Source: an uncultured delta proteobacterium
Lineage (GTDB): Bacteria > Desulfobacterota > Binatia > Bin18
Direction: 5' to 3'
NCBI GenBank assembly: GCA_963733195.1
Contig: CAVTCR010000010.1
Location: 16,283-80,282, forward strand
DNA: 64,000 bases
This document shows, one piece after another, positions 10,982-28,350 of the stretch (position 1 is its first letter; each line of letters starts with the position of its first letter). Below the pieces are notes generated by a model that did not search any database, had not been told where the DNA came from, and saw only the letters and a list, made by a program, of their open reading frames with translations. Made by a program: the position numbers and the translations under genes.

Positions 10982-11036
10982 ACGTTTGTGCCTAGAGGTT
11001 TCTCAGGCCGTTGGCAAGAACCTCTCCTGCTTCAAA

Positions 11037-11092
11037 TCCCACAACTTTCCCATAACTTTCCCACAACTTCCTGCTCGTTTCGTACATCTTCT
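11037..11092 (+). promoter_or_regulatory. Conserved promoter-like module copy 1: 3x 11-bp direct repeat + CATCTTCT box
   Basis: TCCCACAACTT/TCCCATAACTT/TCCCACAACTT at 11037-11069; CATCTTCT at 11085; same module at 13587 and 21137. Confidence 0.75.
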
Positions 11093-11239
11093 CCGTGCAT
11101 GACGCCGATCCTGCAAGGAGCACGCACGATGAACAGCGCAATTCGCGCTCCGCCTCCGATCATCAGCAAAACCGGCGCGGAACAACGACAGAACAATAAA
11201 CACTCAAGCAACACAATCCACAGTAAGGAAAATACAATT

Positions 11240-11704
11240 ATGAAACACACATCTTCATGGGATTTCGTCGCTGGCTACTCACCAGTGCTCTCACCTTGGG
11301 TCATAAGCACCATCGCTATGGTGAACACCCCTGGTTTCGCACAAGTCATTCCTGGCGATCCTGACCACCTCAAGTGTTACGAAGTGATTCAGGACCAAAA
11401 TCCTGCGGGCCAAAACGAAGTGGATCTGGTCAATAAATTTGGATTGGAACCTGGCTGCCACGTCGGCAAAAAGGCACGCCGTTACTGCACCCCAGCCCGC
11501 AAGTTCATTGAAGGTGGCAATGGCGATGACCCGCGGGGCGTTGCCCTCAACACCGACTTTACCTGTTATCGACTCGAATGCCCAGACAGTCCCATTCGAG
11601 AGTTAGCCATCGATGACCAGTTCGGCAACCGCCACATCCGCATCGACGATGCCGTGATGCTGTGCACGCCAACGGAGTTGGAGGGAGTGCAGGTAGAGGA
11701 CTAA
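11240..11704 (+). CDS. Exported Cys-rich hypothetical protein (DHxKCY...DQFG...LCTP module, DUF7450-like)
   Basis: TAAGGA RBS before ATG 11240; hydrophobic segment ending GFA-Q; two-fold internal pattern (CY..NKFG..YCTP / CY..DQFG..LCTP). Confidence 0.65.
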   Translation: MKHTSSWDFVAGYSPVLSPWVISTIAMVNTPGFAQVIPGDPDHLKCYEVIQDQNPAGQNEVDLVNKFGLEPGCHVGKKARRYCTPARKFIEGGNGDDPRGVALNTDFTCYRLECPDSPIRELAIDDQFGNRHIRIDDAVMLCTPTELEGVQVED

Positions 11705-11714
11705 ACCATCAATA

Positions 11715-11868
11715 CCAGAGCACCCTAATGAGTTTTGACAAGCAAGTTCGGTAAAATTCAGACCTGTGGCTCGAAGGTTCCCTCTCCCGCCGGGAGAGGG
11801 ACAGGGTGAGGGAGAGTAAACGGCGGGGTTGCCGATTTTGATCGTCAATTTTCATTAGAGTGCTCTGG
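11715..11868. mobile_element. MITE-like element (154 bp) with internal hairpin
   Basis: Terminal IRs CCAGAGCACCCTAATGAGTTTTGAC vs rc CCAGAGCACTCTAATGAAAATTGAC; internal CCCTCTCCCGCCGGGAGAGGG palindrome. Confidence 0.7.
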
Positions 11869-11967
11869 CCTTCCTTACCGCCGGGAACGATTTGCCTCCA
11901 TTCTCCCCTTTGCGGGAGATAGGAGAACTAAGCCTGGAAACACTGAACGCTGTAGACAATCTCACAA

Positions 11968-12274
11968 ACAGAGGAGAAAAACCATGAAAGTAGTGAATAT
12001 GTTGAGATCCGCTGGAGCTCTTGGTTGTACACGGTGGTGGAACCACAACAGAGCCGATGATGTCTTGAGGGGATTACCGCGCTGGTGGAGAAAAAAGAGC
12101 ATTGCCGGCACGGCACGGTGTGCAACGCTGGTTGGTTTGAGTGTGTTGGTGGCCACGTTGTGTCTGCAGCCATCACTGGCAGTCGCCGTCAAGGACGTGC
12201 CGTATGGCGAGGACGGTTCACCCCCCGACAATGAAGCTCAGGCCGACGCGGACGCGTTCAACGACGCAATCTTA
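11968..12274 (+). repeat. RBS + 97-codon leader cassette, copy A
   Basis: Manual alignment to 21245..21551: 307 bp, 19 mismatches, no gaps. Confidence 0.95.
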
Positions 12275-13441
12275 GAAGGGGACGTGGAAGACCTGGGGGT
12301 GTGGTACCAGGTGAAGTTCTGCGGCTGGTATCGACTGTCCTTTGCCGACGATATGGCCAGCTTACCGGCGGGATCGGCGTCCTACGACTACTGGACAACT
12401 AACGACGATCAGCGGGCTCTCGGGGCCAAGATCAAGGTGATACGCAACTCCGATAGGGCGGTGGTGCACGAAGCATTCACGCCTTGGACCGGGGTCGACA
12501 TCGGATGTACACCCTCGCTCACTCTGAACTCGGCGGAATCCTACGAGGTGCGTATTTATTCGACCGCCAACGTGAATAGCAATACGATCACCGTGAAGAA
12601 CGACGACGTAGACCAAGACGTATACTATTCGGTTGCCCGGTCCGCCTTTACGCCCACCGCATCGAACACGATTAACGTATATACCGGGACCCATGCGGCG
12701 TGGAATATTGCCGGCGCTGCAGGCTGGGCAATGTCACGCCGTAACGGCGGGCTCAATGGCGAAACGTTCGTGGTGTACGATCAGGCCTGCCCTGGTGGCA
12801 CAAGCAATTGTTTGAGTGGCGGCAATAACTATATCGTCACCGATACCAGCAAATTTGTCATCGTGCACGAACTGGGACACGCGCTGGTGAAAAAGGCCAA
12901 TGCTGGCAGCGGAGCTAATGTTAGCACTGCCCTGGTAAATGCGACCTGTCCAAATGTGGGTGGCACGCATGATTTCAATTCGCTCGAGTGGCAAAGCGGT
13001 GCCGCTAACGAAGGCTTCGCCAGCTACTATGCGGCGGTGGCGTGGAATCAAACCCAGGAGCCGAATTGTACCTATGTGCTACACCGCTGGAACGACTGGA
13101 ATCTCGATGGAGTTAACAGCGATACCAGGGTGTTCTCCTGCGAAGGCGCAGCTCCTGGCGAGAGCGATGCCGAGGACTACGCTGGCCAGTTCTGTGGGGC
13201 GGCTTCCAACCAGGGCACCCAACTCGACTGGATGCGGTTTTTCTGGGATCTCGACAACAAAGAAGGGCTAAACACCACGGACATTGTCGATATGTGGGTT
13301 GACTCGTCACCGGATACGTGGACCGCGACCGGCGTCGGTTCGGGTGCCGGGTTTCCGAGCTTTGAACTCGAGGCCGCCGCTGACCGACTCGGTTTTGGCA
13401 CAGCTTGGAACAATCAGGAATCCAACGGCTCACTTCGCTGA
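11984..13441 (+). CDS. Secreted zinc metalloprotease-like protein with long shared leader
   Basis: GAGGAG RBS; hydrophobic h-region ending SLA-VA; HELGH...NEGFASY gluzincin-like motifs; FFWDL. Confidence 0.75.
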   Translation: MKVVNMLRSAGALGCTRWWNHNRADDVLRGLPRWWRKKSIAGTARCATLVGLSVLVATLCLQPSLAVAVKDVPYGEDGSPPDNEAQADADAFNDAILEGDVEDLGVWYQVKFCGWYRLSFADDMASLPAGSASYDYWTTNDDQRALGAKIKVIRNSDRAVVHEAFTPWTGVDIGCTPSLTLNSAESYEVRIYSTANVNSNTITVKNDDVDQDVYYSVARSAFTPTASNTINVYTGTHAAWNIAGAAGWAMSRRNGGLNGETFVVYDQACPGGTSNCLSGGNNYIVTDTSKFVIVHELGHALVKKANAGSGANVSTALVNATCPNVGGTHDFNSLEWQSGAANEGFASYYAAVAWNQTQEPNCTYVLHRWNDWNLDGVNSDTRVFSCEGAAPGESDAEDYAGQFCGAASNQGTQLDWMRFFWDLDNKEGLNTTDIVDMWVDSSPDTWTATGVGSGAGFPSFELEAAADRLGFGTAWNNQESNGSLR

Positions 13442-13453
13442 AACCCGGCCAAA

Positions 13454-13488
13454 GAGGAGGAGGGTGGGTCGCATCTCACCCTCTCCTC
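13454..13488 (+). terminator. Hairpin after protease gene (possible terminator)
   Basis: GAGGAGGAGGGTGGG...CTCACCCTCTCCTC inverted repeat 13 bp after the stop; no clear U-tract. Confidence 0.4.
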
Positions 13489-13586
13489 GACTGAAGCGGG
13501 AAAAACGTCGCATCGTCAGGCTACGAAGGTCAGGAGACAGTAAGCGACGAAAACAGCATTGTTTCGTCGCTCAATCGCTGCGCAAA

Positions 13587-13642
13587 TCCCACAACTTTCC
13601 CACAACTCTCCCACAACTTTCTCTCCCTTTCACACGTCTTCT
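13587..13642 (+). promoter_or_regulatory. Conserved promoter-like module copy 2
   Basis: TCCCACAACTT/TCCCACAACTC/TCCCACAACTT at 13587-13619; CGTCTTCT at 13635; ATG at 13704. Confidence 0.75.
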
Positions 13643-13703
13643 CCCTACGCGACCTCAGACCTGCAGGAAAAGTAGCAAATTCAGGAATTCTCAGGAGGTT
13701 TTT

Positions 13704-15380
13704 ATGCATTTATCACTTTGGACCATTCTTCGCTTCGCCCGGAAACTTTCTTTCGCTCTGCCTCTTATCGGGCTCAGTATTCCTGCGAACCCAACATTGG
13801 CACAGACGAACAACTGTAGTGCTCCCTATTGGCAGGACACATTGCGATGTGCTGTGTTTCCTAACGATCCACCGCAAGCAAATTTCAACACGCGTCCTCT
13901 GAATGCTTCAGAGGTAAAAGACTTCTCACGGGTCTTTCTCAATAACAATCCCGCCGTTCGTTGTGCAGACGGCACTCGCCCCCTTATGTACGTCGACAAG
14001 GCTGTCGGTGCGCCCTCGAACAAGTGGATTTTCTCTATGACCGGCGGCGGCTCCTGTAATGCTCACGACAGCAACGGAGACGGTGTCTTCGACGATGCTC
14101 AGGAATGTCTCGATACGTATAGCGATCCACAAGAGCACGGTGAGATGGGAACTGCGTCCCAACCGCCGATGAGAAACCTCGAAGGGATCAATCGTCCTGA
14201 TACACTGCGAAATCCGGTTTTCGCCGGCTATAACCGCGTGCGCGTGCAGAAGTGCAGCTACGATCGCTACAACGGTCGCGCCGCGTACGAAGCCGCAGGT
14301 GGCTACTTCCATGAGACAGCTCCGACTGGCGTGGTTATTGATTTCAACCTGTACCAGCACGGCTACCTGATTATGGAAGAAGCGTTAGCGGCCCTGCAGA
14401 GCGGTCTGACTTACACTACGTGGACCGTCAGTGGCGCCGGGGGCCCAAGGCGTGTTATCGAAGAGCAGGAATCCCTCCCACCGCTTGCCGACGCCGAGAT
14501 CGTTCTCTTCATTGGCCACTCTGGGGGCGCGCACGGGCTCTTTCATAATATCGACTACCTCGCAACATCACTTGCAGCTATACCCGGATTCGCAGGCGAT
14601 GTGCGAGCACTGTTCGACGCAAACTTTCTTGAGTCGATCGAGAATGAAGCGGCATTTGCTACTGATGCCTTCGGGACCCCATTGGATGGCGATGCCTACA
14701 GCAACATTTGGACAGGATACACAATCGGTGATGGGATTCCCTTTGCGTACGATGGAGCAACGCGCTATGCCACTAGCGATATCGTCGAACAGTACAACAG
14801 TTGGGCCGCAGTGTTCGACTCTTCGTGTCTCGCCGCCCATACTGCCACTGGCGACGACTGGAAATGTCGAGATCGCTATCATGTACTCTTCAATCATATC
14901 GCTACCCCCTTCTTCTTCCGCGAGGACTTTACCGACCCCAATCAGGAGCATATCAATCACGGCAATGGACACTTCGTCGCATGGGGGACGTGGGATGCAT
15001 ATTCCCATTGCCCCGCAGGCTTCAACCCTTGCCCGCCACTCTTTACGGTTGATGAACACCGTACCCGACTGACACAACAGTTTGAGACACTTCTCGAAGG
15101 ATCGTCCTCCCGCTCAGAACTTGCAACCGGTGTAGACCCTAGCCTTGGCGTCGGTAACTTTCCGACCTTCTACGCATGGATGCCCAATTGCGGCGTTCAC
15201 GAAGGCGCCTACGACGACGCGTCTTTCTATAATACCGCGGTGTCGTACAAAACCTTTACCCACTCGATGCGACAGTGGCTTGAAGGCTTCATGTGGGTTG
15301 GGCGTACGAACTTACGCGGCTCGCGTGTCGACGGCCGGGCTGACAGTAGCGGCAATGTGATGACCAGTACGTGCCCATGA
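13704..15380 (+). CDS. Secreted pectinacetylesterase/Notum-like alpha/beta hydrolase
   Basis: AGGAGG RBS before ATG 13704; signal peptide ending TLA-Q; CADGT, GGGSC, nucleophile elbow GHSGG, C-terminal CGVH. Confidence 0.75.
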   Translation: MHLSLWTILRFARKLSFALPLIGLSIPANPTLAQTNNCSAPYWQDTLRCAVFPNDPPQANFNTRPLNASEVKDFSRVFLNNNPAVRCADGTRPLMYVDKAVGAPSNKWIFSMTGGGSCNAHDSNGDGVFDDAQECLDTYSDPQEHGEMGTASQPPMRNLEGINRPDTLRNPVFAGYNRVRVQKCSYDRYNGRAAYEAAGGYFHETAPTGVVIDFNLYQHGYLIMEEALAALQSGLTYTTWTVSGAGGPRRVIEEQESLPPLADAEIVLFIGHSGGAHGLFHNIDYLATSLAAIPGFAGDVRALFDANFLESIENEAAFATDAFGTPLDGDAYSNIWTGYTIGDGIPFAYDGATRYATSDIVEQYNSWAAVFDSSCLAAHTATGDDWKCRDRYHVLFNHIATPFFFREDFTDPNQEHINHGNGHFVAWGTWDAYSHCPAGFNPCPPLFTVDEHRTRLTQQFETLLEGSSSRSELATGVDPSLGVGNFPTFYAWMPNCGVHEGAYDDASFYNTAVSYKTFTHSMRQWLEGFMWVGRTNLRGSRVDGRADSSGNVMTSTCP

Positions 15381-15411
15381 CGCACCTCGCTGCACAGACT
15401 GTGAGCGTAGG

Positions 15412-16590
15412 GTGCGTCGACATCGGAATCCGGATTTTCGGCATCGGGTGCCGGGGCCGTTGCCAGCCGTGGCGGAGATTGAAGCGGAACTGACGGCGTT
15501 ACTCACCCCCGCGTTGTTCGCGCCGCGCCAGCTGGAACGGCGCGACCCGCGCAATCCCGCTCGGCGGATTCGGCTGCGCGCGCGGATTTTGACGTTACCG
15601 GTGATGGTGGCCCTGGTGGTGAGTTTGGTCTGGCGGCGCTTGGGCGCCATTGCCGAGGTGCAGCGCGTGGTAGTGCAAGACGGCTTGCTGTGGGTATCGC
15701 CGTTGCAGGTCAGCGAACAAGCGATCGCCAAACGGCTCGATACGTTGCCCGCCAGTGCGCTTGGCAGCGGTGTTTACGGAGGTGAGTGCGCGCTTGCAGG
15801 CCCAACCCCCACCGCAGCATCCCTGGCCTGGAGCGCTGGACGGAAGTGCGGGCGCAGTTTCCGCGCATTGCCATGGTCGATGGTTCGACGCTCGAAGCGC
15901 TGCGCAAAAAGACTCAGCCCCTGCAAGCTCAGCCGGGCCTCGTGCTCGCGGGCCGGATGATGGTGATGGTCGAAGCCTTTACCCATCGGCCGCTGTGGCA
16001 ACTCTATCACCGAAGATGCGGCGGCCAATGATAAACGCTTTGCCACGGAAATTCTCGCGGCCGTGCCCGACGGCGGGTTGTTGGTCTTTGACTTGGGCTT
16101 CTTTAGCTTCTTATGGTTTGACGATTTTACCGACCAGCAGAAATACTTCGTGACCCGCTTGCGCCAGAAGACCGCCTATCGCACGACCCAGTGTTCTCAG
16201 TACCAGCCCGTACTATCGCGATGAACTCATTGAGGTGGGGCTGCATCATTCCCATCCCTGCCGTCACCCCTTACGCTTGGTCTCAGTCTTATGGCGCGGG
16301 CAGTGGTATCGCTACCTCACCAACGTTCTCGATCCGACGCAGCTCTCCGCGCGCCACATTTGTGAGTTGTATCGGCGGCGCTGGCGTATTGAAGATGCCT
16401 TCTTGGTCACCAAACGCGTGCTCGATCTCGCCTACCTGTGGAAAGCCTCGGCCAATGGCGTCCAACTCCAACTCTATGCCACTTTCCTCTTCTACCTCGT
16501 GCTTCTCAATGTCTGTCAGCAGGTCGCTCAGAGCCTCAACGAACCGTTGGAACGCATCTCAGTGGAGATGGTCTTTCGCGCTTTCTACCA
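15412..16590 (+). mobile_element. IS4-family transposase, frameshifted and 3'-truncated
   Basis: Pieces in several frames: RILTLPVMVALVVSLVWR, VDGSTLEAL, VFDLGFFSF, YLTNVLDP..LYRRRWRIEDAF..KR; similarity stops after ISVEMVFRAFY; IRs not found. Confidence 0.8.
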
Positions 16591-16672
16591 GGTCGCGACC
16601 CCACCCTACATGATTCGTCACTACATAATCCTTGTTTCTACGCGGGGACACCACACTCAGAAAGGAATAGTT

Positions 16673-18493
16673 ATGCAACCGATAATCGCTCTCATACGCA
16701 CTTGGTTAAAGACTTCAATTTGTTTGCTTACGCTATTGTTGATTCAAAGTCAGGCTGGCATGGCGGTGGCAACTCTTGATGGGGCCCAATGTGGGGAAGA
16801 CGGCCTTTGCAGGATGAACGGGTGCCCAGACCCAGACCCCGATTGCCCGAACGACGATCTCCCAAACAATGGCTCAGGTGGTGGCGGTGGCGGTAATTCA
16901 GCGCATTTCACGATCGAAGGGAAAGTGGAATTCTTCGCCGCCTATCACAGCGGTCAACGTGTCGGACAGGTTCCGAACGGGCAATCGCCGTTGCCTTACC
17001 TCCATGTCTGCGCGTGGGATAAGGATGATGCTGTCGATTTCGAATTCACCGATTACCCCACCGCGCCCGGGAGCGGAGGAAACGACGAATTCCTCGGTTG
17101 TGACAGGGCTGACGTCAACGGGAACTTCCACATCAACGCCTCGTTTGCAACAGGCGGAGAGAGTGAGCCTGACATCTATCTGGTCACTCTTCTTTGCGAC
17201 GACACCGGAGAAGGGGCTGCCTCGGCAGCGGACGTATGCGTGCGGATCAATGCAGAAGAAGCAGACGCCGACTACCCAAGAAACGCGAAGTCGATCTGGT
17301 CGCGCGTGTACGCGGACATCAACCCCAACGGGACCACGGTGACTATCTCGTGGAATCTATCGTGTCCGAATCGGAGTGGGTTGAATTCCGCATCCGTGAC
17401 GTGTGCCGGAGACACAGAGCCTGACAACTGGGCCGAGTCCTCTCCCGGAGCCGCTGACTGGTGCGCGTGCCAGGACGAGCCGTGGAAAGAATGCCTGACC
17501 ACAATCCCGTCCTGTTCGACCTGCGGAGACACGAACTCCCGATACGGCTGCAACAAAGAGGCGGTTCATGTGTATCGTGCCGCGATCGAACCCTACGTGA
17601 CATGGGGCACCAACAAGCCAGCCGCCGACAGCACCTTCTCAAAAGACTGTGACACTGCCGACATCTGGGATGACGGGGGAGACGATCACTGCGAGATGGA
17701 TGAGTGCCAGGACGAAGCCCGATTTCACCTGTCGAATATTCAAGCAATAGCAGGAATGGGATACGAACAAGAGGGATCCGATGGGACAGGTGTTTGCGAG
17801 CCGGACCCCGCAGACCCCCAGAATGGGGCAGGTGACTTTGATCGGATCTGCATTCAAACGCCAGATCAACCGTTCAGAGTCGTCCACGAATACGGACACG
17901 TCATCCAAAACCGGTGGCTGTGTGACCCCAGGGACGCCAGGAAGCGTGTCAACGGAAGTTCCGCCCAGAACCATGCGACTCGAGAGGGGTGGGCGAACTA
18001 TGTCGCGTCGAAGGCCTGGTCAGTGGATCGGTATTGTCAAGAAGGCAGCGGCGGCAACGATTGCTACTCCATGGAAGCAGGTGGAACGAACAACGGGGAC
18101 GAAGTGAGTGTCGGCCAGTTCTTCTGGGACCTCGGTGACCCCGTTGATGATGCTGGCTGGACCGAAACAGAGGACCGGACATTTCAAGAGATCCGCAATG
18201 TCTGGAGTGCTTTTCCAAACGGGTCGGGTCCGTCACAGACACGCGAGTGCGATCCAGGGCCCCCGCCGGGTATCGATTGCTCAGGCAGCGCTGGTCACCA
18301 GGCGAATGGGGTGAACATGTTGGACTACTCCTACTGGTTTAAGGTGAAGATGACGGGGAGACGGCGGTTGACGACTTCATATTGCGACACGCTGAGACAG
18401 AACGACCTGACTATTCACAGTGACTCGCTCGCAAGTGGCGATTTGGATGACATCTGTCGTTCTCTGAGTTGGACGGCTATCCCCGTACCGTAG
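16673..18493 (+). CDS. Secreted Cys/Asp-rich zinc metalloprotease-like protein
   Basis: AAAGGA RBS before ATG 16673; signal peptide; CPDPDPDC; HEYGH...REGWANY; FFWDL. Confidence 0.7.
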   Translation: MQPIIALIRTWLKTSICLLTLLLIQSQAGMAVATLDGAQCGEDGLCRMNGCPDPDPDCPNDDLPNNGSGGGGGGNSAHFTIEGKVEFFAAYHSGQRVGQVPNGQSPLPYLHVCAWDKDDAVDFEFTDYPTAPGSGGNDEFLGCDRADVNGNFHINASFATGGESEPDIYLVTLLCDDTGEGAASAADVCVRINAEEADADYPRNAKSIWSRVYADINPNGTTVTISWNLSCPNRSGLNSASVTCAGDTEPDNWAESSPGAADWCACQDEPWKECLTTIPSCSTCGDTNSRYGCNKEAVHVYRAAIEPYVTWGTNKPAADSTFSKDCDTADIWDDGGDDHCEMDECQDEARFHLSNIQAIAGMGYEQEGSDGTGVCEPDPADPQNGAGDFDRICIQTPDQPFRVVHEYGHVIQNRWLCDPRDARKRVNGSSAQNHATREGWANYVASKAWSVDRYCQEGSGGNDCYSMEAGGTNNGDEVSVGQFFWDLGDPVDDAGWTETEDRTFQEIRNVWSAFPNGSGPSQTRECDPGPPPGIDCSGSAGHQANGVNMLDYSYWFKVKMTGRRRLTTSYCDTLRQNDLTIHSDSLASGDLDDICRSLSWTAIPVP

Positions 18494-18603
18494 ATCACGG
18501 TGGCTCGCTCCCAAGTGACGATTTGGACGACTCTGTCCTTAAGGGATGTGGAAAACAGAGTAGCCCCGAATAATAAGGCCAATTAGCTTAGAGAGGAGAT
18601 CAA

Positions 18604-20342
18604 GTGATGAATACTCGCAATAATGCAATATTCGCCTTGCCGTTGTCTCCAGTCGTAGCGTTAATCGGCTGCATCGAAGAGCGATGGCGGCGACTGGGCC
18701 ATCTCATGAACTCACGAAAGGTCGACCTATGCGCGCTTGCCACGGCGCTGATTGCCACGCTTGTTGCGCACACCGCCGGAGCGCAGCCGGCGACCTACCA
18801 CGACGTCGCGGCGATGGATGCCGCTATCGTCCGGTTGGACGGCGCCGCTGGTGGCCGGATGCAAGTCCACGACATCGGAACGACCGCGAACGGCCGGCCC
18901 GTACGCGCGGTTCACATCTCTGCCACTCCCAACCTTTACGGCACCGGGGCCGAGGCCAGCATGGCCGACAAGCCCGCACTGCTGATCGAGTGCGGTATGC
19001 ACGCACGGGAGTGGGCTGGTCCCGAGCTGTGCCTGAAGTACCTTCAGACTTTTCCGCTCGCCCTCCTGCTCGATCCGATCCGCATTAACGACATTCTCGC
19101 GAACGCAGACATCTGGGTGATCCCGATGGTCAACCCCGATGGGCGCGCACGCGACGACACCGCCGGTGGCGACCGAAGAAGTACACCACGAACAACGACT
19201 CGTTTATGTGGCACGGTGGCGACGCGGCAGGCTGGCGCCCCAACGCGCAGGTTGTGTCGTGCGCACGAGTCCCTTCGGCGGGTACAGCGTCGGGATCGAC
19301 ATCGCCCGGAGCTTCTCCACGGGTTGGAGCATCGCCAATCCTAACGATCCTGATATCAGAGAAGATAATTGTGAGAGCGACCATTTCCACGGCTACGCGC
19401 CCTTCCAGGCGCTTGAGGCGCAGATCCTGCGGCGCTTCGTCGACAACCGGATGATCTCGATGTCGCTCTCGGTCCACTCCAACGGCCAGTCGATGGGTAT
19501 CCGTACCGCATCGCTCAACGCGATCCGCGACAACGTGATCAACCTGTGGAACGCCAAGGTCCCCTCGCTCCCGCTCACGACGGGCGCAACCGGGTCGCAG
19601 GCTAGTGGGCCAGTTTCCCGCGTGGATGGCCGACACGTCCGAGCACACCCAATGAGCCCGACATTGGCACGCGCCGTGGCGCGTCGCACTGCTGATGGAG
19701 CTGCCACCGAAGGAAGAAGAGGATGAGAACGTTGACAACTACGCCCCGCCGTATCAGTACGACTCAAACGACAGCTCGAACGGGTTTCACCCAAGCGCGC
19801 AGGTTTTCCTCGACGAAAGCTGGCAAGGCTTCATCGCCAGCGTACAACATCTCGCCGAGCAGACCGCCGCCCCTGGTGCCCACTCACGCCCGACACCCTG
19901 ACGCCGTCGGCGACATGCAGCCGCGACGTCGGCATTACCGGCGCGAAGATCGCGGTGTGTAACGACTGCGTCGGCACTCTCGCCGAGTCGCCGTTCGGCT
20001 ACTACGGCTCTCGCCAGACCAACACCGCCGGCTCCCGCCGCATCGTCTACCGCATCCAGAAAGCTTCGACAGCACTACGGCAGCGACGGTACAAGTGGCG
20101 GTCAGCATATCCTCGAAGCCGACCGGGTCTTAGTACTTCGGGGCGTACCCACGGATCTCGTTAACACGACGAGCTTCCCGGTGGCGCCGCTGGCTTCGGG
20201 GGCGGCGGCGACGGGCAGCGTACCGTTCACGTTCGTCGCCGGCCGCGATTACATCGTGAACATCAACGCGACGGCGACGTCGTACACCGACGAGACGAAC
20301 ACGCAGAATAACTACCGCCAGTTCCGCTTCATCGTTCCGTAG
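18604..20342 (+). pseudogene. M14 zinc carboxypeptidase with C-terminal beta domain, several frameshifts (possibly sequencing indels)
   Basis: HAREW Zn motif, IPMVNPDG, GIDIARSF, SVHS, MELPP spread over frames; final frame ends YRQFRFIVP* at 20342. Confidence 0.72.
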
Positions 20343-20375
20343 GGGTAGTGCCGCAGGCGGGCGTACGCCGGTCGA

Positions 20376-20472
20376 GACTTCCGTGCGCGTGGGGCGGCTG
20401 AATCTCCGCGGCTGGCGCGTCGACGGGTGGAGCGACGACGGTGGAAATGTGATGACGAGTACGTGTCCATAG
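20376..20472 (+). pseudogene. Orphan 3' end of a paralog of the 13704..15380 esterase
   Basis: Encodes VGRLNLRGWRVDGWSDDGGNVMTSTCP* vs VGRTNLRGSRVDGRADSSGNVMTSTCP*. Confidence 0.85.
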
Positions 20473-20543
20473 CGCATCGAGAAAACTTCTTGTGACCTAC
20501 ATCAACAATTTCTAGGTATGAGTTCGAGAAAGGACATGCGACA

Positions 20544-20941
20544 ATGAAACTACGACTCTTCTTCTTATTGGCTACCCTCTTCGCTTTCCTAACAGCGCCA
20601 GTGCAAGCGCAGCATCCTGAAGAAATACGCAGGGTCGCTGACACGGAATGGGAAGCCGCTCGTCAGGAAAACGATCCCATCGAATTTGTCCTTCCCGTTC
20701 ACTGCCCCACTCGGCTCCAATAAAGGGAGTCGTTGAAAGGGACATGTCATTCTTCACCTCACCGCTCCACTCGGTTCCACGAAAGGGAGCATCACAGGCG
20801 CTGCGGTGCTTCAGTTCACTCCTCCCATCGGTTCCGACAAGGGAACCGCTTACTGGGCTCATCGAAGGCGTCGCTGAGTGCGGCGATACTGGGAGTCTGC
20901 CGGGCAGAGATGGTTCTTTCCGCCACACGCTATCAGCATAA
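20544..20941 (+). pseudogene. Small secreted protein with three ~19-aa TAPLGSxKG repeats, frameshifted
   Basis: AAAGGA RBS; signal peptide MKLRLFFLLATLFAFLTAPVQA; repeats TAPLGSNKGS, TAPLGSTKGS, TPPIGSDKGT. Confidence 0.55.
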
Positions 20942-21136
20942 CCAAACTGATCTGGAATTCTTAGCTGATCAGGGGAGTTTGATATCACCACGCGTGAGTG
21001 GTTCAGCCTGAGTTTCATCTTGCCATATCTTGAGCAGGACAATTGAACGGTTAACAAAAATTTCCGTTCCAATTATTGCTGGCATGACGCGGGGCGACCA
21101 ACTGGTCGCCCCGTTGCTTTTTGTGCCCTGCCGAAA

Positions 21137-21193
21137 TCCCACAACTTTCCCACAACTCTCCCACAACTTCCTGGGTGTTTTCGAGCGTCTTCT
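21137..21193 (+). promoter_or_regulatory. Conserved promoter-like module copy 3
   Basis: TCCCACAACTT/TCCCACAACTC/TCCCACAACTT at 21137-21169; CGTCTTCT at 21186; ATG at 21261. Confidence 0.75.
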
Positions 21194-21244
21194 GCTTCTC
21201 AAGACATCACCCCTGCAGGAAGTGTCAAATTCAATACAACCGTT

Positions 21245-21551
21245 ACAGAGGAGAAAAACCATGAAAGTAGTGAATATGTTGAAATCTGCTGGAGCCCTTG
21301 GTCGTACACGGTGGTGGAACGACAACCGAGCCGACGACGTCTTGAGGGGGCTACCGCGCTGGTGGAGAAAAAAGAGCATTGCCGGCACGGCACGGTGTGC
21401 GACGCTGGTTGGTCTGAGTGTGTTAGTGGCCGCGCTGTGTCTGCAGCCATCACTGGCAGTCGCCGTCGAGGACGTGCCGTATGGCGAGGACGGTTCACCC
21501 CCCGACAATGACGCTCAGGCCGACACGGACGCGTCCAACGACGCAATCTTA
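21245..21551 (+). repeat. RBS + 97-codon leader cassette, copy B
   Basis: ~94% identical to 11968..12274. Confidence 0.95.
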
Positions 21552-22916
21552 TCGGGAGTCGATCCTCATCCAGACGCAATCAACACGGCTACGTGTGACT
21601 ACCACGACACGACTTCTCCCTACAGCGCAACGTACGCTGATTTTGCATCGAACCTCACAGGGCCGAAAGGAAACACTGGGTTGACAATCCAAAATCAAGT
21701 CGAGTATCACCACGTCGGCGGCGCGTCAGTCGTCATTATTGAAGATGGCAATATTACCCAACACCATTGGTATGGCTGTCGAGATCGGGCGACAGCCAGT
21801 CGCACCACGGCAAATACGATCTATCAGGCTGCTTCGTTGTCGAAATTTGTCAGCTCGATCGGCCTTGTGATTGCCGACCGTAACGGGGTGGTCGATCTCG
21901 ATCGCACTGTGCAGTCCTACGCGAACAGCTATCCGGACAGCTTACTGGCGGAATGGGTAGATGACAAATTTCGCGGCAACACTGAGAGTTACCCACAGAG
22001 TATCCCCCTGCGCCGCTTACTCAACCACACCGCGGGTCTTGATACCCACGGCATCGGCGCGTGGGACCCCAGCGATGTCCCGACTATGCGCGACATCATC
22101 ATGGGCTCGAACGACTTCGACGGTTTCTTTGACGGTGGTGTAGAGCCGCTCTTTGCCCCGAAGGTTTCGATTGAATACTCCGGTGGCGGCTTCATCGTCG
22201 CCGAGCATATCCTTGAACTGGAGTCACCCCTCTCGTTCAGGGAATACCTCAAACAAAACGTCCTTGATGCAGCAGGGTTGACACTGAGTACCTTTGACAA
22301 AGCACTGACGTCGATGACCAATCTCGCGCGCCCTTTTAGCCGCACAGTCGGTGACTCCAGCGTTTTGCAGACTAACGTTAAAGCGGCAGGCGGGCTCTTG
22401 GCCAATGCGCGCGAGTATGCCGAACTTGTTACGGCTCTCGTCAACGGCGGACTCACAGACAGTGGACATCGTGTGATGGTGCAGTCCGATATTAACACCA
22501 TTCTGACGCCGGCCGCACACGGAGAGTCGACCTTCGCGCCATGTGCCACTCCAAGTGAGACCAACACAATAGAAACGCCGATCGTTATCAAGGGGATAGA
22601 GATCCCAGCCTCCACTTCTATAACCGAGACATGTGTAGGCGGTGAGTTTCGCCGCGTGCTCCTCGATGGCAGCGACTGGTCCGGGCTCGGAGTCGAACTC
22701 TCCACTACTGTCGAGTCAGACGGCTACCCGCGCACCGTCGATCACGGTGGCTCACAAACCGGTTCGCGCACTTACTTTAAGATCGATCGTCGCACCGGTG
22801 ACGGCATCGTTATTATGATCAACGGAACAGAAGAGTGGGTTGATGGCGACGGGTTCATCTATGGTGCTGAGCCGTTACTTGAGGAAATTAAAGTTGCGTA
22901 TAATGCGGCATATTAA
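21261..22916 (+). CDS. Secreted serine hydrolase (beta-lactamase/class C-like family) with long shared leader
   Basis: SxxK (ASLSK), LLNHTAGL, YSGGG, AAGGL, HGG motifs; GAGGAG RBS before ATG 21261. Confidence 0.85.
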   Translation: MKVVNMLKSAGALGRTRWWNDNRADDVLRGLPRWWRKKSIAGTARCATLVGLSVLVAALCLQPSLAVAVEDVPYGEDGSPPDNDAQADTDASNDAILSGVDPHPDAINTATCDYHDTTSPYSATYADFASNLTGPKGNTGLTIQNQVEYHHVGGASVVIIEDGNITQHHWYGCRDRATASRTTANTIYQAASLSKFVSSIGLVIADRNGVVDLDRTVQSYANSYPDSLLAEWVDDKFRGNTESYPQSIPLRRLLNHTAGLDTHGIGAWDPSDVPTMRDIIMGSNDFDGFFDGGVEPLFAPKVSIEYSGGGFIVAEHILELESPLSFREYLKQNVLDAAGLTLSTFDKALTSMTNLARPFSRTVGDSSVLQTNVKAAGGLLANAREYAELVTALVNGGLTDSGHRVMVQSDINTILTPAAHGESTFAPCATPSETNTIETPIVIKGIEIPASTSITETCVGGEFRRVLLDGSDWSGLGVELSTTVESDGYPRTVDHGGSQTGSRTYFKIDRRTGDGIVIMINGTEEWVDGDGFIYGAEPLLEEIKVAYNAAY

Positions 22917-22999
22917 TCATTAAAAGTGATAATCACAAAACCTTACCGACGCCCGCAATTTACTCTTTAACTTTTTCTTTCCCTGTAAGGAGATTAGCC

Positions 23000-23197
23000 A
23001 TGATACACAAAAAAGCCCAACAGCTTCTTCGCACTGCCGTGACACAATTCACCGTAGGTGGAGCCGCAGGTTCAGCGACTGTTGCTAGTGGCAACACACT
23101 GCGGGCGCGGTTTGCATTTACCAATTACTCGACCGAAAGTGTAAACGTTATTGGTACACATCACGATGCAGCTCATCAGGATTGTCATTCTGAGTAA
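23000..23197 (+). CDS. Short hypothetical ORF, probably truncated by a repeat element
   Basis: TAAGGAG RBS; last codons run into a TGTCATTCTGAG repeat. Confidence 0.35.
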   Translation: MIHKKAQQLLRTAVTQFTVGGAAGSATVASGNTLRARFAFTNYSTESVNVIGTHHDAAHQDCHSE

Positions 23198-23241
23198 CGC
23201 GAAGAATCTCTCGGAGAGGTCCTTCGCTACGCTCAGAGTGA
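23183..23241. repeat. REP-like palindrome (TGTCATTCTGAG...CTCAGAGTGA type)
   Basis: TGTCATTCTGAGTAACGCGAAGAATCTC...TCCTTCGCTACGCTCAGAGTGA; related arms at ~35378 and 49908-50165. Confidence 0.65.
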
Positions 23242-23372
23242 TATTGCCCTGGGTTAATCTCTTATGGCTTGATTTCGCCGAAAACTGTATCAGAGTCGGG
23301 CCCTGAAATCTGGGTTTTCAGGGCCGCCTTGCGCGGAGAGGCACAGCTTATCTGCATCCTCAGCTCACCTTA

Positions 23373-24379
23373 CTAAACCACCTTTGTCGCTTTGGTACGG
23401 ATGTGGCGACTCACGCCGCACATGCCTTGAGAGATTCTCGTTCGCCGAATTCTTGTGTGAATTGCTCGCGCAGGCGAAAGATACGGGAATAAACGGATCC
23501 AGTGGTTGCGTTCAGCAGTCGAGCGATGTCCTTATACGGGGGAGTCAATTTGTACGTCCGCAGCTCCTCGACAAGGCGTTCACGCTGGCGGATACGTTTG
23601 GCAAGAGTGTGTTCTAGAGCATGCTTTTGAGCCAGGAGTTTTTTACTGTCAACAAATATTTTCCCCAGCGGAAAGAAAACCTACCTGCCTATTAAGCTCT
23701 TGCAGCTCCTTTTGTCGCAGGACGATCCATCCCCACACCGAATCGAGTTCGTCACGCAGGCGAGCAAGCTTTTCATCTTTTTGTTTGAGATTGTCTTGCA
23801 CCTCAGCTAGCAACATCAACGTATCGTGAACGGTTCGTCCGGAGATGCTCTGCCAGCAAACAGATATCTTCCGAGTTCAGTGGATACTCCAACAGTGACA
23901 ACAATTTGAGATGCAACTGTTCCTCTGGAGTAAGAGCCTTCAGGGTTTCGGTTGTCATCTCCATCAACATTTCGTCACTGCTCACTCTGTCGACAGCAAT
24001 TGATCCAGGGAGAATGTCTTCTAGGGTCCGACTTCCATCGTCTGAATCATCGACTGGAGTTTGCAAGGATATTGTTTCGATTTCTTTGCGGGTTCGTCGC
24101 CATTCTACGAACAAGTGCTTCAACACGTAGTAGGATAGAAAGGTACGAAACTGAATACTGTTGCGACCTTCGAAGGTTTTGAGGCGGATAAATATACGGT
24201 CTTTATCAAAGACATAGAGGTAAAAATCGCCGGCCTCCTCGATTGGGGTTCCATAGATTTTTACTGGAAAGTTATAGATATCCTCACCATAGGTTTCCTG
24301 GAAACGTCTGCCGTGCAACCGTATCACCTGCAGCGCATGCATTGAGGAACGCGCAGAGACCGACGTTGTCTTGGCGCAT
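23373..24379 (-). pseudogene. ECF-like sigma-70 factor with coiled-coil insert, frameshifted
   Basis: GGAGG RBS; ACAAGDTVARQTF, FYLYVF, FRTFLSY (region 2-like); C-terminal YKDIARLLNATTGSVYSRIFRLRE (region 4 HTH) in another frame. Confidence 0.65.
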
Positions 24380-24624
24380 AGAGTAATGCACCTCCCTGAA
24401 GAGAGAGCTGGGTCATATCATTGCTCTTTGTGGCTTGTGTAGTGCCGCGAGTTCGGCTTTCTAACCTCAGGAAGGAGCAATTTCTGGACCGTGCGGTTAG
24501 GAGATGTTGCCAGTAGAGAGAAGGGCCGGTCTCGATTATCGCTGATGTTGCGATTTCAGATAGCGAGGAAAATCCTGTGAGAAATCAGGCTTGTAAGCTT
24601 CTTAGGTAGGATACACCGCCTTCC

Positions 24625-27600
24625 TCAGCTCCCGCTCCGTAACTCCTCTAGCAGTGTTTTCGCCTCACGCAGGTCAGGAGTGTCAAATCCTTCAGAGAAC
24701 CAACTGTAAACTTCAGATAACATTGAGTGTGCAGCGTGTTGCCTCCCCTGTTGTTGCCAGAGGCGAGCAAGGCTCGATAGAGGCGCGCAGTTCTAAGGAT
24801 TTCGCCTGTTGTTGCCGGGCAATGTCGATGGCCTTTAAGAAACAGGCTTCGGCTTCGCCTTGGGGGTCGGGAGTCGGGGACGGAGGTCAGTTATTGACTT
24901 CCTTGACTTTGCTCTGGACTTGCTTTTGACTTGCTCTTGACTTGCCTGAAACTTGTTCGAGACTTGTTCGAGACTTGTTCGAGACTGTTGGAGGGTCAGT
25001 TCTCCCTGTAAGCCGATACAACTCTGCCTCAAACGTCCGTTCCTCGGTTCGCTCAACCGGCAGCGACTGCGTCAGTGAGCGCTTGCAGCGCAGACTCGAC
25101 CTGGCCGGTTTTGCTATAGGCGTCAACCAGCAACAGCTGATATGAAACCTCCCCAATCCTGACCCCTGCGACCTGCTGTCGTTTAAGCCCGGTCTGCATG
25201 AGGGCAATACCTTCGTCACTCTTGCCCTGCATGACTAACGCCCATCCCTGAAGTACCATCCCCATCGCCAGCAAATGAACAAACCCGCACTCCTGAGCAA
25301 ACGTGCGCGCTGCTTCGGCATGGCGCTCTACTGCTTGAAAGTCACGGCAACAGACATGGAGCGTCGCGGCTAAGTTCAACGCCAAAGCCCGGCCATAGGG
25401 GAACATCGTCTCGTGCGCCAGGGCTAATGCCTGACGACTGCACTCTCGCGCCTGGTCCGGGTAGCCCACTATCCACAACAGTACGGCAAGATGAGCGAGA
25501 CTACTGGCACGTGGGTCTTGCCCCGTCAGAAAGACTTTCGGTTGCGGCAGTTGCGGATTGTACAACGCGAGACTTTGTTCAATATGTGGACGAGCCGCGT
25601 CAAACTCGCCTAGGTGAAATAATGGCGTGCCGATCCCCAGGTGAGCCTCCGCTGCGAGTGCAGACATTCCGGTCCGCTCGACAAACTCCAGAAACTCCTG
25701 CGCTGCTGCGCGTCCGGCCTGCAGCTCACCGCGCAAGAGATGGAAATTCCGTAATCCCCACAGCGCCGCGAAACGTTGCGGTGAATCACCAACGACACGG
25801 CTCAGGTCACGAATTCGCCCGTACGCATGCTCTACCTCTGGCGCCGCGAAGCCTCGGGTATGCATCAACGAAAGACTAAGGCCAACCTGCAACGCCAGCT
25901 CTTGCTGCGTTCGTTCTGGAGACTCCGGGAAGTGCGACAGCAGCGCAATACCCTTGTTCAGATGATCGATGGCTTCCTGATAGGCGTAGGTCCACATCGC
26001 ATTCTGCGCCGCTTGTCCGAGATACTGCACCGCACGGAGGAAATCTCGGCCCAGTTCAAAGTGCACGCCGAGTTCCACTGCCACTTCACCGACTCGGCTC
26101 TGATACGCCCGTTCGAGACGTTCACCAATCCGTAGGTGCATCCCCACTCGTCGGCTTGGCGGCACATGTTCATACAAAACGTTCTGGTAAAGCGCATGAA
26201 TGAAACGATAGCGCGCAACGAATGTTCCGTCTGGCCACTCGGCAGTCCCAACCGCCTGGAGGAACTGCTCTCTCTGCGCCAAGTTCGCACATCGCATCTC
26301 AACAGCTTCATCGTCTCGTCCCAATCCCGCCGCGACGGTCGCGGCGGAAAACTCCATCCCCGCTACGCTCGCGGCCGTTAATACTTCTTGTTCCTCGGCG
26401 CCCAATTGTTCGATGTGGTGCTCGATCAATTGCCGCAGGCTCTCTGGCACCCCAATTGTTGCCCCGTCCAGCATCTGCCGCATGCGTTCTCCGTTCGCAC
26501 TATCGAGCATCCCCTGTTGTTCCAGATAGTCAGTGACATTCACCATAAACAACGGATTTCCCTCGGCATGATGATAGACAAGCTGTCCCACGCCAGCGGG
26601 TAATGCTCTGTCAGCGAACCGCCGGGTGAGATAGTGCTCGACCGCCTCGGCGGAGAGAAAACTCGGGGTGAGTTCATGGTAATGCCCAGCACGTTGGATT
26701 TGCACGCGCAGCTTTTTCAACGGATGGTCACCTCCAAGCGTTTCCAAAGATCGGGAGGTTCCGAGCACAAACAATCGAGCAGGTTCGGGACGAGCAGCAA
26801 CGACAGCAAGCAACTCCAATGTCGAATAATCACTCCACTGCAGATCTTCGAGACACAGAATAAACGGGCGCTCCACAGTCAGTGCTTCGAATGCCTCGGC
26901 CATTTCTCGTAACATCCGGTCACGGGTCGCTCCTCCGACCTGGCGCTGAAGTGTCTCGCGTTCCGCATCACTGAGTAACGCGGGCATGTGCACTAACCAG
27001 GTTGGGGCGTGGCGATGGAGCAACTTTAACATTTCGTCTTTTTCAGAACCCCGACAGAGTCGCCCAAAAGCTTCCAGCACCGGCATATACGGTTCTCCTG
27101 CGCCGTATTGCTCGATGCATTGGCCCCGACCCAGCCAGGGAACAGGATTTGGGGTCTGGGATCTAGGATCTAGGAATTGGTCTTCTATTTTTGATTTTTG
27201 ACTTTTGATTTTTGACTTTTGACTTTCTTCCTGCTTTTGTACTCCGAACTCTTCGGAACTCTGTACCCCGAACACAAAGGTGTCGACGAGGGCCGTTTTC
27301 CCAATCCCGGCTTCGCCAGTTACGAAGATAATCTGCCGCTCACCGCTACATGCTCGAGCAAACCATTGGTGAAGTTGTACAAGTTCGGTGTCACGACCAA
27401 CGAAGTTCGGGGCTTGAGGCTTGAGGCTTGAGGCTTGAGGGAAGACAAAGGCAGTTTCTGTTTCTGACTTTTGCTCTTTGCCTTTTGCCTTTTGACTTTC
27501 CTCTTGTCCTGGACTTTGGACTCTGGACTCTGGACTCTGGACTTCCGCGATAAACCGATACCCTCGTCGATGCGCCGTCTCGATGTACTGCGGTGATTTG

Positions 27601-27899
27601 GCGTCGTCTTCTAAAGCTTTGCGTAACTCCTTGATACATGAGGTCAACGTACTGTGACTCACAATCGTATCTGGCCACACCGCGCGTAATAATTCACGCT
27701 TAGACACCAACTGACTTGGACGATGAGCTAGATGGCGTAGGACTGCGAAAGCTTTCCCGGTTAGTCGCACGACGTGTTGATTCCGCCACAGTTGCCCGTT
27801 TTGTGGGTCCAATCGATAGACACCGAAGTGCAGGACTTCGTGTGGTTGTGCTTGTGGTGCTTGCTCTGCAGCTGGGAAGTCTGTTCGCGTTTTCATCAT
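24625..27899 (-). CDS. Transcriptional regulator: OmpR/PhoB-type (CadC-like) wHTH + AAA_16/STAND ATPase + TPR; frameshift near 25060
   Basis: wHTH ..VWPDTIVS..IKELRKAL..IETAHRRGYRF; FVGR, GEAGIGKT, LEDLQWSD, GNPLF; tail FEAELYRL..KSLELRA..EGFDTPDLREAKTLL* ending 24625. Confidence 0.85.
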
Positions 27900-28308: not shown

Positions 28309-28350
28309 AAAATGAAGAATTACCGGTTTATTGCTTTTCGATTATCTCTT

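Follow-up and report, generated by a model that had tools for sequence, protein, structure and literature searches.

A triple-repeat promoter module and its linkage to STAND-type winged-helix regulator and ECF-like sigma genes in Candidatus Binatia

The 64,000-nucleotide stretch of DNA analysed here (the window, G000:C10:16283-80282) belongs to G000, a 6.95-Mb draft metagenome-assembled genome (MAG) of Candidatus Binatia in 87 contigs. Between positions 11027 and 27899 it carries a row of genes for predicted secreted proteins, three of which follow copies of one promoter module made of 11-bp direct repeats, and, on the opposite strand, genes for a sigma factor resembling the extracytoplasmic function (ECF) class and for a regulator that joins a winged helix-turn-helix (wHTH) to a STAND ATPase and TPR repeats. 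We consider it reasonably probable that this AfsR-like STAND-wHTH activator and the ECF-like sigma factor jointly control a small, mainly secreted regulon through the triple-repeat promoter. The locus would then be a single unit of a transcription circuit specific to the Candidatus Binatia lineage.

The uncultured Binatia abound in soil, and their gene regulation is essentially unstudied; our literature search found no paper joining 'Binatia' with 'sigma factor' and none mentioning DUF7450, the family of the core target described below. The comparison was made with a set of 55 family genomes (Candidatus Binatia, G000 included), among which G002 is of the same genus as G000, and with the metagenome contig Ga0081539_10000744.

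The conserved promoter module

The pattern CCCACAACTTTCCCAYAACTYTCCCACAACTT, which has 32 nt and spans three 11-bp units, occurs on the + strand of the window at 11038, 13588 and 21138, with 0 sites expected from 100 shuffles, so that one promoter-like module does recur three times, as the original prediction had it. The whole genome of G000 holds five such sites, with C71 and C3 carrying the two beyond the window; for the reversed control pattern the same genome has 0 sites. The anatomy of the module was read from 18 copies out of six genomes, aligned on the third unit. It consists of three, sometimes four, head-to-tail units CCCACAACTnT (CCCACAAC followed by TnT), and in 14 of the 18 copies a -10-like element C[G/A]T[C/A]TT stands at +24 to +26, counted from the third unit. 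The CGTCTT-like hexamer begins 25 nt past the start of the third unit, giving the layout AAC-N17-CGT; AAC...CGT with such spacing is the layout of ECF-type promoters. The three copies of G010 keep the -10-like element although their downstream sequence is otherwise unrelated.

In the window, the module P1 (11027..11090, + strand) begins with AAAT and has its units at 11038-11070 and the -10-like CATCTT at 11085-11090. P2 (13577..13640, + strand) has units at 13588-13620 and CGTCTT at 13635-13640, and P3 (21127..21191, + strand) has units at 21138-21170 and CGTCTT at 21186-21191. Outside the repeat core the three are only 60-77% alike. By its sequence and layout, the module is a conserved predicted promoter. 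A reading of it as a mobile element of the MITE (miniature inverted-repeat transposable element) kind was rejected, because the copy beside addB is syntenic in G000, G002 and Ga0081539.

A further block, AAGACAT..CCTGCAGG..ATGTCA, is found at about +38 to +75 of the module in 13 of the 18 copies (e.g. window 21196-21235), where it surrounds the predicted transcript start; it is absent from the three copies of G010. An RNA element in this block was considered and dropped, since 25 distinct copies yielded no consensus fold with RNAalifold. A DNA inverted repeat, TGACAT-N14-ATGTCA, is the better reading of the block, and it could be an operator.

The wHTH-STAND regulator and its paralogues

The regulator gene occupies 24625..27899 on the - strand, where the open reading frame (ORF) as assembled covers 25053-27899 and encodes 948 aa. 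Pfam hits for the regulator proteins were considered at E<=0.01. The protein of the window combines Trans_reg_C (PF00486, E 2e-19, residues 43-116) with AAA_16 (E 5.5e-20) and TPR; it also gives weak NACHT and NB-ARC hits as well as TPR_12 and TPR_MalT hits, and PhoB, OmpR and CadC are listed among the profile matches of its winged helix. The neighbours in G010 and G016 likewise carry an N-terminal Trans_reg_C, and the recognition helix VSHSTLTSCIKELRKAL is unchanged in the G016 neighbour though the whole protein is only ~34% identical. No BTAD is present among the Pfam hits of the window, G010 and G016 regulators, for which no profile-profile or fold test was made.

The regulator belongs to a very large family: in a tblastn search the whole protein gives 168 high-scoring segment pairs, 33 hits of at least 80 aa to the DNA-binding domain (DBD) are found in G000, and this genome carries at least 33 paralogous wHTH-STAND genes. 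The module-side DBD forms an orthogroup of its own, with 72-84% identity in G002, G003, G010, G016, G018 and G022, the next best being at most 65% identical.

G000 was scanned for any 8-nt core occurring three times at an 11-nt period, with shorter periods excluded. At two mismatches or fewer, 31 triple repeats were found in 6.95 Mb, and for 12 of them the start of one of the 33 wHTH-STAND genes is no more than 3 kb away, compared with 0.88 expected; two of the 12 are an unrelated CAAGTC repeat within the 3' end of the window regulator's own gene. Eight lie within 150 nt of wHTH-STAND starts, with a different unit sequence in each. The paralogue-side triple repeats of G000 are at C18:82306, C42:50829, C50:102378, C50:160258, C70:38742, C76:36550, C83:21647 and C48:29966, and one outside G000 is at G013:C340:2783. 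In the seven of these eight cases that were inspected, the repeat ends within ~80 nt of the likely regulator start codon (within 20 nt in four), and when the opposite strand is read for C18, C48 and G013:C340, the repeat faces a divergent gene. Possession by each wHTH-AAA_16-TPR gene of its own triple repeat looks like a genome-wide rule of the family. Because the paralogues pair with their own period-11 triple repeats throughout the genome, this pairing supports an AfsR/PhoB-like binding of the repeats by the winged helix.

In and just after the regulator gene, units of 7 nt (GACTTTT-like) and of 11 nt (CAAGTC-N5) also form tandem arrays, at 27169-27247, 27456-27506, 24900-25000 and 28342-28392. 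They add low-complexity SQKSK/EQVS stretches that are absent from the G010 orthologue.

The atypical ECF-like sigma factor

The adjoining sigma gene (23411..24379, - strand) is spread over three frames in this assembly; the 179-aa 'sigma' ORF covers the first third of the gene only, and the remainder lies in two other frames. The orthologues in G002, G010 and G016 have 327-333 aa. The pieces from the window show 61-70% protein identity to the G010 sigma factor, and intact orthologues 64-68%. TIGR02937, the NCBIfam profile of the sigma70-ECF superfamily, is matched by all 10 of the 10 aligned family members (best E 2.7e-14), with scores that fall under the cut-off of 42.9 bits wherever the cut-off is shown: 32.9 bits for the G010 protein and 24.8 bits (E 1.4e-5) for the window fragment. 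Pfam yields just a sub-threshold match to Sigma70_r4_2. An AlphaFold model predicts an HTH (163-191), a coiled-coil hairpin of ~90 aa (195-286) and a second HTH (293-324).

No anti-sigma gene lies beside the sigma gene in the window, G002:C40, G010:C3, G016:C30 or Ga0081539. The sigma paralogues, at G000:C82 and no fewer than 15 further loci, differ from these: a zf-HC2 anti-sigma gene comes next in every case, often with a gene for a CHAT or AAA_16-TPR protein, and in more distant Binatia the sigma factor, anti-sigma factor and AAA_16-TPR protein stay together. The four genomes whose sigma gene has no adjacent anti-sigma gene all have the module. At G000:C82:33000-45371 (L025) and at L061-L068, a paralogous sigma gene with its zf-HC2 anti-sigma gene and a CHAT-TPR gene was observed near a cyclase-AAA_16-TPR gene.

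A sigma-54-type box (GG-N10-GC, ...TTGCT; 24476..24491, - strand) is located ~100 nt upstream of the sigma start. A box of the form [C/T]GG..C-N5-TTGCT is present in five of the six upstream regions of the module-linked sigma type, including L019, L020, L094 and L026, and G000 encodes rpoN on C62. A sigma gene placed behind such a box presumably parallels the HrpL-type ECF sigma factors, whose genes are expressed from sigma-54 promoters.

Distribution of the module and its linked loci

The module is present in six of the 55 family genomes (G000, G002, G003, G010, G016 and G024) and absent from all 16 genomes that were searched in other families of the order and class. A metagenome scan returned 29 stretches, 28 of them true copies and one an unrelated repeat; as three come from contigs of G002 itself and one contig accounts for two overlapping stretches, ~24 further contigs are added.

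Many copies of the module stand before DUF7450 genes, the core target, with orthologues in G002, G010, L070, L075-L078, L085, L086 and L093. Other copies precede a PAE-like esterase in G000 (twice) and G003, a hydrolase of the beta-lactamase family (bla) in G000, G003 and L079, a secreted MKRxK... protein in G002, G010 and L083, a small secreted 107-aa protein in G000:C3 and L080, and a PMP-repeat protein in G010. Two families with neither signal peptide nor Pfam hit (MAKVKVTFENIT... and MATKVTEHY...) and a canonical ECF sigma factor in G003 and G024 are also encoded behind it. Because the module precedes signal-less proteins and an ECF sigma gene as well, the predicted regulon is rich in secreted proteins and is not a hydrolase arsenal alone. 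The secreted-enzyme arsenal of the original prediction needs to be widened accordingly in its content. That the canonical ECF sigma factor is what truly reads the promoter was considered and rejected, since G000 has no close orthologue of it (best tblastn 33%).

The module, an orthologue of the regulator DBD and the sigma gene are linked in G002, G010, G016 and on Ga0081539_10000744. On G002:C40, regulator and sigma genes run forward, DUF7450 and its module follow in reverse, and addB and addA come next in forward orientation. On G010:C3, the sigma gene (reverse) is followed by three forward modules, the first before DUF7450 and a metzincin gene, the second before an unknown gene and the third before the PMP-repeat gene, and then by the regulator gene (reverse). 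On G016:C30, a forward regulator gene is followed by a metzincin gene, a DUF7450-like gene and their module, all in reverse, and then by the forward sigma gene. On Ga0081539_10000744, addB is followed by a module with DUF7450, the metalloprotease-like gene MP1 and PAE', by a second module with an unknown gene, all forward, and by the sigma and regulator genes in reverse, both intact. Five of the six module-bearing genomes have the orthogroup DBD, that is, five of the 55 family genomes carry both. From this conserved arrangement, the genes behind the module very likely belong to a single regulon connected with the adjoining regulator and sigma factor. The shared control suggested in the original prediction is supported to this extent. 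MP2, the second metalloprotease-like gene of the window, has no module upstream.

The proposed circuit

This arrangement raises two questions. First, which protein would read the repeats? Second, which sigma factor would read the -10 element? For the first, two known kinds of regulator offer a guide. The pho box consists of 7+4 bp direct repeats, one helical turn in length, which replace the -35. Like PhoB and OmpR, the Binatia regulator has a Trans_reg_C winged helix and direct-repeat sites; unlike them, it has no receiver domain, and its input would come from the STAND ATPase-TPR part of the same polypeptide (for the direct-repeat spacing of PhoP/PhoB, see PMC4832192). The closer parallel is with AfsR and the large SARPs of Streptomyces, which are built from an OmpR-type wHTH, BTAD, NOD/NB-ARC and TPR. 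According to PMC10936776, the sites of AfsR (wHTH, NOD and TPR) are two 11-bp direct repeats, of which the upstream one overlaps the -35; the protein touches the first 8 bp in either repeat and engages sigma region 4. The Binatia regulator shares the N-terminal wHTH, the STAND P-loop ATPase and the TPR sensor, and its presumed targets share the head-to-tail 11-bp repeats over the -35 with the first 8-9 bp conserved and the last 2-3 free, here on sequence evidence. It differs from AfsR in that no BTAD hit is seen in Pfam, that there are three to four repeats rather than two, that the -10 is ECF-like rather than housekeeping-like, and that a dedicated sigma gene travels with it. Also different are the lineage, the predicted targets (secreted proteins versus antibiotic clusters) and the family size of at least 33 copies per genome.

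For the second question, the sigma factor resembles the ECF sigma/anti-sigma modules in its weak but consistent sigma70-ECF matches, its zf-HC2-paired paralogues and the AAC...CGT layout of the target promoter. It departs from ECF sigma factors in the ~90-aa coiled-coil hairpin between two HTHs and, in the window type, in having no anti-sigma gene; an autoregulatory promoter was not found either.

We propose that an activated one-component STAND protein, with TPR as its sensor, would occupy the three, sometimes four, 11-bp sites, the last of them over the -35, and that the adjoining anti-sigma-less ECF-like sigma factor would read the CGTCTT-like -10, its own gene carrying a sigma-54-type promoter. 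The circuit would drive a small regulon composed of the DUF7450 core and of secreted hydrolases that vary between genomes, small unknown proteins and a canonical ECF sigma factor. If so, the 'sigma adaptation' idea of AfsR would also apply outside the actinobacteria, in a system that has its own dedicated alternative sigma factor. The locus offers a testable cis/trans pair, namely a predicted 33-bp operator and a defined winged helix, which would represent a family of STAND-type one-component regulators with at least 33 copies per genome; orthogonal sets of promoter, regulator and sigma factor of this kind would be useful as synthetic-biology parts. The features that most deserve testing are the family-wide occurrence of period-11 triple repeats beside STAND-wHTH genes and the position of a sigma gene without anti-sigma partner behind a sigma-54-type box.

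A more ambitious version of the circuit is put forward tentatively, as one we hold possible though not probable. It would need two keys and have three tiers: a sigma-54-type promoter would supply an anti-sigma-less, ECF-like sigma factor with its coiled-coil hairpin between two HTHs, this factor would require a BTAD-less activator sitting on three or four 11-bp repeats, and the STAND sensor would gate transcription in place of the lost anti-sigma factor. The shared promoter would act as portable homology that recruits secreted-protein genes between the core target and the regulators, and each Binatia genome would contain dozens of such STAND-wHTH/triple-repeat units.

Several observations weigh against the joint control proposed here. 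The regulator and sigma genes are each frame-shifted three times, and for that reason the circuit may be dead in the genome of this assembly (see below). The N-terminal half of the sigma model is of low confidence (pLDDT below 50), the C-terminal half being confident, and a Foldseek search of the PDB with this model brought up coiled-coil look-alikes only, all at E>0.1. No AAC-N15-18-CGT[CA] was found in the 300 nt before any of 21 sigma genes, so the usual autoregulation of ECF sigma factors is not seen. The sigma family is tied to CGTCTT by adjacency and promoter shape only, from which we infer the pairing. G018 and G022 have the DBD orthologue and no module even with a relaxed pattern; G024 has the module, and neither the sigma gene nor the DBD orthologue was found in this genome, which is 83% complete. 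On G002:C16, two modules surround a different paralogue whose DBD is 51% identical. Finally, as the genomes are related and not independent, counts of module/DBD co-occurrence overstate the support, and the co-occurrence is to be taken as suggestive and not as a statistic.

In a simpler alternative, the sigma factor alone would recognise the promoter, taking CGTCTT for its -10 and, for its -35, the AAC in the last unit, with its two HTHs perhaps touching two units, and the wHTH-STAND protein would be an upstream sensor acting elsewhere or on the sigma factor. The AAC-N17-CGT spacing, which we take to be ECF-like, would fit, as would the two HTH elements flanking the coiled-coil hairpin in the model and the adjacency of sigma gene and DUF7450 module in every linked locus. 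Moreover, the AAA_16-TPR proteins encoded beside sigma/anti-sigma genes in distant Binatia align to the regulator from about residue 140, leaving the wHTH region unaligned. However, wHTH-STAND genes pair genome-wide with their own triple repeats with no such sigma gene nearby, three or four equally conserved units exceed what a -35 needs, and no similar repeats are seen near the anti-sigma-linked paralogues. We regard control by the sigma factor alone as unlikely.

Frameshifts in the regulator and sigma genes

The original prediction placed an ECF-like sigma gene and a wHTH-ATPase-TPR regulator gene directly beside the array; both are there, and each is broken by three +1 insertions. Frameshift positions were scored against the intact homologue on Ga0081539_10000744, at 77-80% DNA identity. 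The sigma gene has single extra bases at 23653, 23847 and 24309, and the 3' part of the regulator gene at 24775, 25008 and 25058, such that the C-terminal 130 codons of the regulator are readable only across them. Six frameshifts fall inside the 1.65 kb of the regulator 3' end and the sigma gene, and none in AddB or in four hydrolase genes (~2,100 codons).

These data could mean that the regulator, the sigma factor and the M14 carboxypeptidase of the array are true pseudogenes, and that the array is a set of rearranged, horizontally acquired pieces no longer co-regulated. Besides the six frameshifts, about four are needed in the M14 gene, an insertion sequence (IS) fragment and two orphan gene ends are present, and MP2 has no promoter module. 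Natural gene decay is, however, biased toward deletions, and all six changes relative to the intact homologue are single-base insertions. The pieces of the sigma factor also fall at the identity to the G010 protein that is given above for intact orthologues. Since all six are +1 insertions and the housekeeping gene addA is likewise split by one base, we favour consensus errors of the assembly over decay, judging a decaying remnant improbable; the tight clustering of the six changes nevertheless leaves real decay open. The addA gene itself is divided into two ORFs near window 7340, where one base is missing relative to the Ga0081539 homologue, probably through an assembly error. Among 18 sequencing runs listed, none contained more than 0.10 of the sampled words of the locus, and no RNA run with the locus came up.

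The secreted-enzyme array

Seven genes co-oriented on the + strand (DUF7450, MP1, PAE-like, MP2, M14, a 59-aa ORF and bla) encode proteins with a hydrophobic stretch at the N-terminus and an AxA/AQA-like site after it, as judged by hydropathy scan and by eye, not by a signal-peptide predictor; the seven export signals of the original prediction are thereby recovered. The first gene (11240..11704, + strand) encodes a cysteine-rich secreted protein of the DUF7450 family (Pfam PF24247, E 3.6e-8). It is preceded by an ORF, MNSAIRAPPP... (11129..11239, + strand), with its own Shine-Dalgarno sequence, which in this assembly runs in frame into DUF7450. The same upstream ORF is seen in L070, L075, L076, L078, L085, L086, L087, L092, L093 and G010 (L020, about 10480). 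It sits in the long 5' leader of DUF7450, has the form M(N/D/S)x(A/V/I)IRAPP(P/L)... and stops after 18-36 codons in most loci, and its polyproline motif suggests a translational control peptide.

MP1 (11984..13441, + strand; 485 aa) has a long signal leader and a metalloprotease-like HExxH...NEGFA pattern, belongs to no Pfam family and is 91% identical in protein to the copy on Ga0081539_10000744. It is followed by the PAE-like secreted esterase of the pectin acetylesterase/Notum family (13704..15380, + strand; PF03283, E 4.8e-16) and by MP2 (16673..18493, + strand), a secreted HExxH...REGWA metalloprotease-like protein and remote homologue of MP1. Their likeness is centred on HExGH...EG[FW]A..Y...FFWDL, presumably a gluzincin-like pattern; sequence searches of MP1 and MP2 against PDB chains gave nothing useful. 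The M14 zinc carboxypeptidase gene (18706..20342, + strand; GC 0.64), which has a predicted signal peptide, is the one broken by the ~four frame changes. The last gene (21261..22916, + strand) encodes the beta-lactamase-family serine hydrolase bla with the leader of MP1 (PF00144, E 2.5e-31).

Origin of the accessory block

G002 is colinear with the window on both flanks of the array, with 587 bp there versus 11,756 bp in the window. By this comparison, the hydrolase array entered the space between DUF7450 and the sigma gene as an accessory insertion of 11.2 kb, which has no counterpart in G002. The block is GC-richer, the GC content at third codon positions (GC3) being 0.59-0.66 in its genes versus 0.51 in addB and 0.46 in the sigma gene. 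The same slot behind DUF7450 is taken in relatives by PAE (L075, L077), MP2-like genes (L078) or metzincins (G010, G016); the content of the locus thus differs sharply between relatives, as the original prediction anticipated.

Two copies of a leader are present, copy A (11968..12274, + strand), which is the ribosome-binding site (RBS) and first 97 codons of MP1, and copy B (21245..21551, + strand) on bla. They are 93.8% identical across 307 nt with sharp edges, from 16 nt before the ATG to codon 97; of the 19 nt at which they differ, 11 fall in synonymous codons and 8 in non-synonymous ones. The shared leader on two unrelated enzymes is thus real. A search of 5.8 billion protein clusters, restricted to proteins of 266-849 aa, found two matches to it, both MP1 orthologues, one of them without the ~25-aa N-terminal extension; neither the MP1 orthologue nor the leader is found in the 54 other family genomes. 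On the syntenic contig Ga0081539_10000744 the leader is the plain N-terminus of MP1, and the bla orthologues (G003, L079) have the module and a short signal peptide of their own and align from the same VDPHP point. Because the leader is native to MP1 and the bla orthologues keep their own signal peptide, a single copying from MP1 to bla is what the data point to. The DNA of MP1 is 90.6% identical to the Ga0081539 copy compared with 76-80% for the flanks, which suggests a recent exchange of MP1.

Two orphan 3' ends were found behind the stops of other genes, as had been noted in the original prediction. The first (ELDGYPRTVDHGGS; 18466..18506, + strand), 41 nt at 85% identity, derives from the bla 3' region and lies across the MP2 stop. 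The second (...LRGWRVDGWSDDGGNVMTSTCP with its stop codon; 20389..20476, + strand), 88 nt at 72.7% identity, is a PAE 3' end behind the M14 gene. It is nearer to the PAE C-terminus of G003 than to the window's own PAE, and the 59-aa ORF with predicted signal peptide that follows (20544..20723, + strand) has homologous DNA behind the intact PAE gene of G003. For both reasons, the PAE orphan is what remains of another PAE copy that was lost. The two orphans and the IS fragment are best described as rearrangement scars. Mosaics occur elsewhere too: the bla promoter of G003 bears the first codons of PAE, the RBS/start region of the same gene resembles the start of MP2 in the window (39 nt at 90%), and the PAE promoter of the window is 95% identical over 41 nt to the promoter of a different gene in Ga0081539. 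Judged from these sequences, recombination around the promoters is recurrent, short of a dedicated cassette mechanism.

Such a mechanism was the core of the original prediction, in which a standard promoter and leader are recombined onto foreign enzyme domains and displace older ones as orphans, as in Rhs, CDI and MafB. The likeness to these polymorphic toxin loci lies in one N-terminal module on two different C-terminal domains and in the 3' fragments behind stops, and the promoter mosaics and the high identity of MP1 relative to its flanks could be read in the same way. Payload swapping behind a standard leader is, however, not supported by the leader itself: both matches in the cluster search of proteins of 266-849 aa are MP1 orthologues, and the 54 other family genomes lack it. 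Unlike polymorphic toxin loci, the window shows a single event with ordinary hydrolase families as payloads, no small partner or immunity-like genes behind them in the reading-frame map of 11-23 kb, and orphans without a constant region that could serve as a homology arm. Pfam and NCBIfam scans found no recombinase beyond the IS4-family fragment, no attC search having been made, and the module also precedes signal-less proteins and an ECF sigma gene. Cassette capture is, in our view, quite unlikely. Under the joint-control circuit, the accessory block (MP1, PAE, MP2, the broken M14 gene and bla) would have grown through insertions, duplications and deletions; two of its genes would have their own promoter copy, and one recombination would have put the RBS and leader of MP1 on bla. 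Ordinary duplication and recombination at a shared promoter would then be enough for an accessory secretome to expand next to the genes that regulate it. That the duplications are mis-assembled is highly improbable, despite the draft state of the MAG (87 contigs, with evident indel errors), as the leader copies differ at 19 of 307 positions, in frame and in unique flanks, an independent contig confirms MP1 with its leader in the same place, and outside the repeat core the likeness between the modules is only 60-77%.

Other features of the array

The IS4-family transposase fragment (15412..16600, + strand), identified with Pfam and NCBIfam, is frame-shifted, and no terminal inverted repeats were found around it. 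A second PAE-like copy of G000, at C71:99600-101450, has its own module, adjoins a transposase gene and is readable in three frames only. Directly after the 59-aa ORF, three ~60-bp tandem copies (CACTCGG[C/T]TCCA..AAAGGGAG) occupy window positions 20700-20860.

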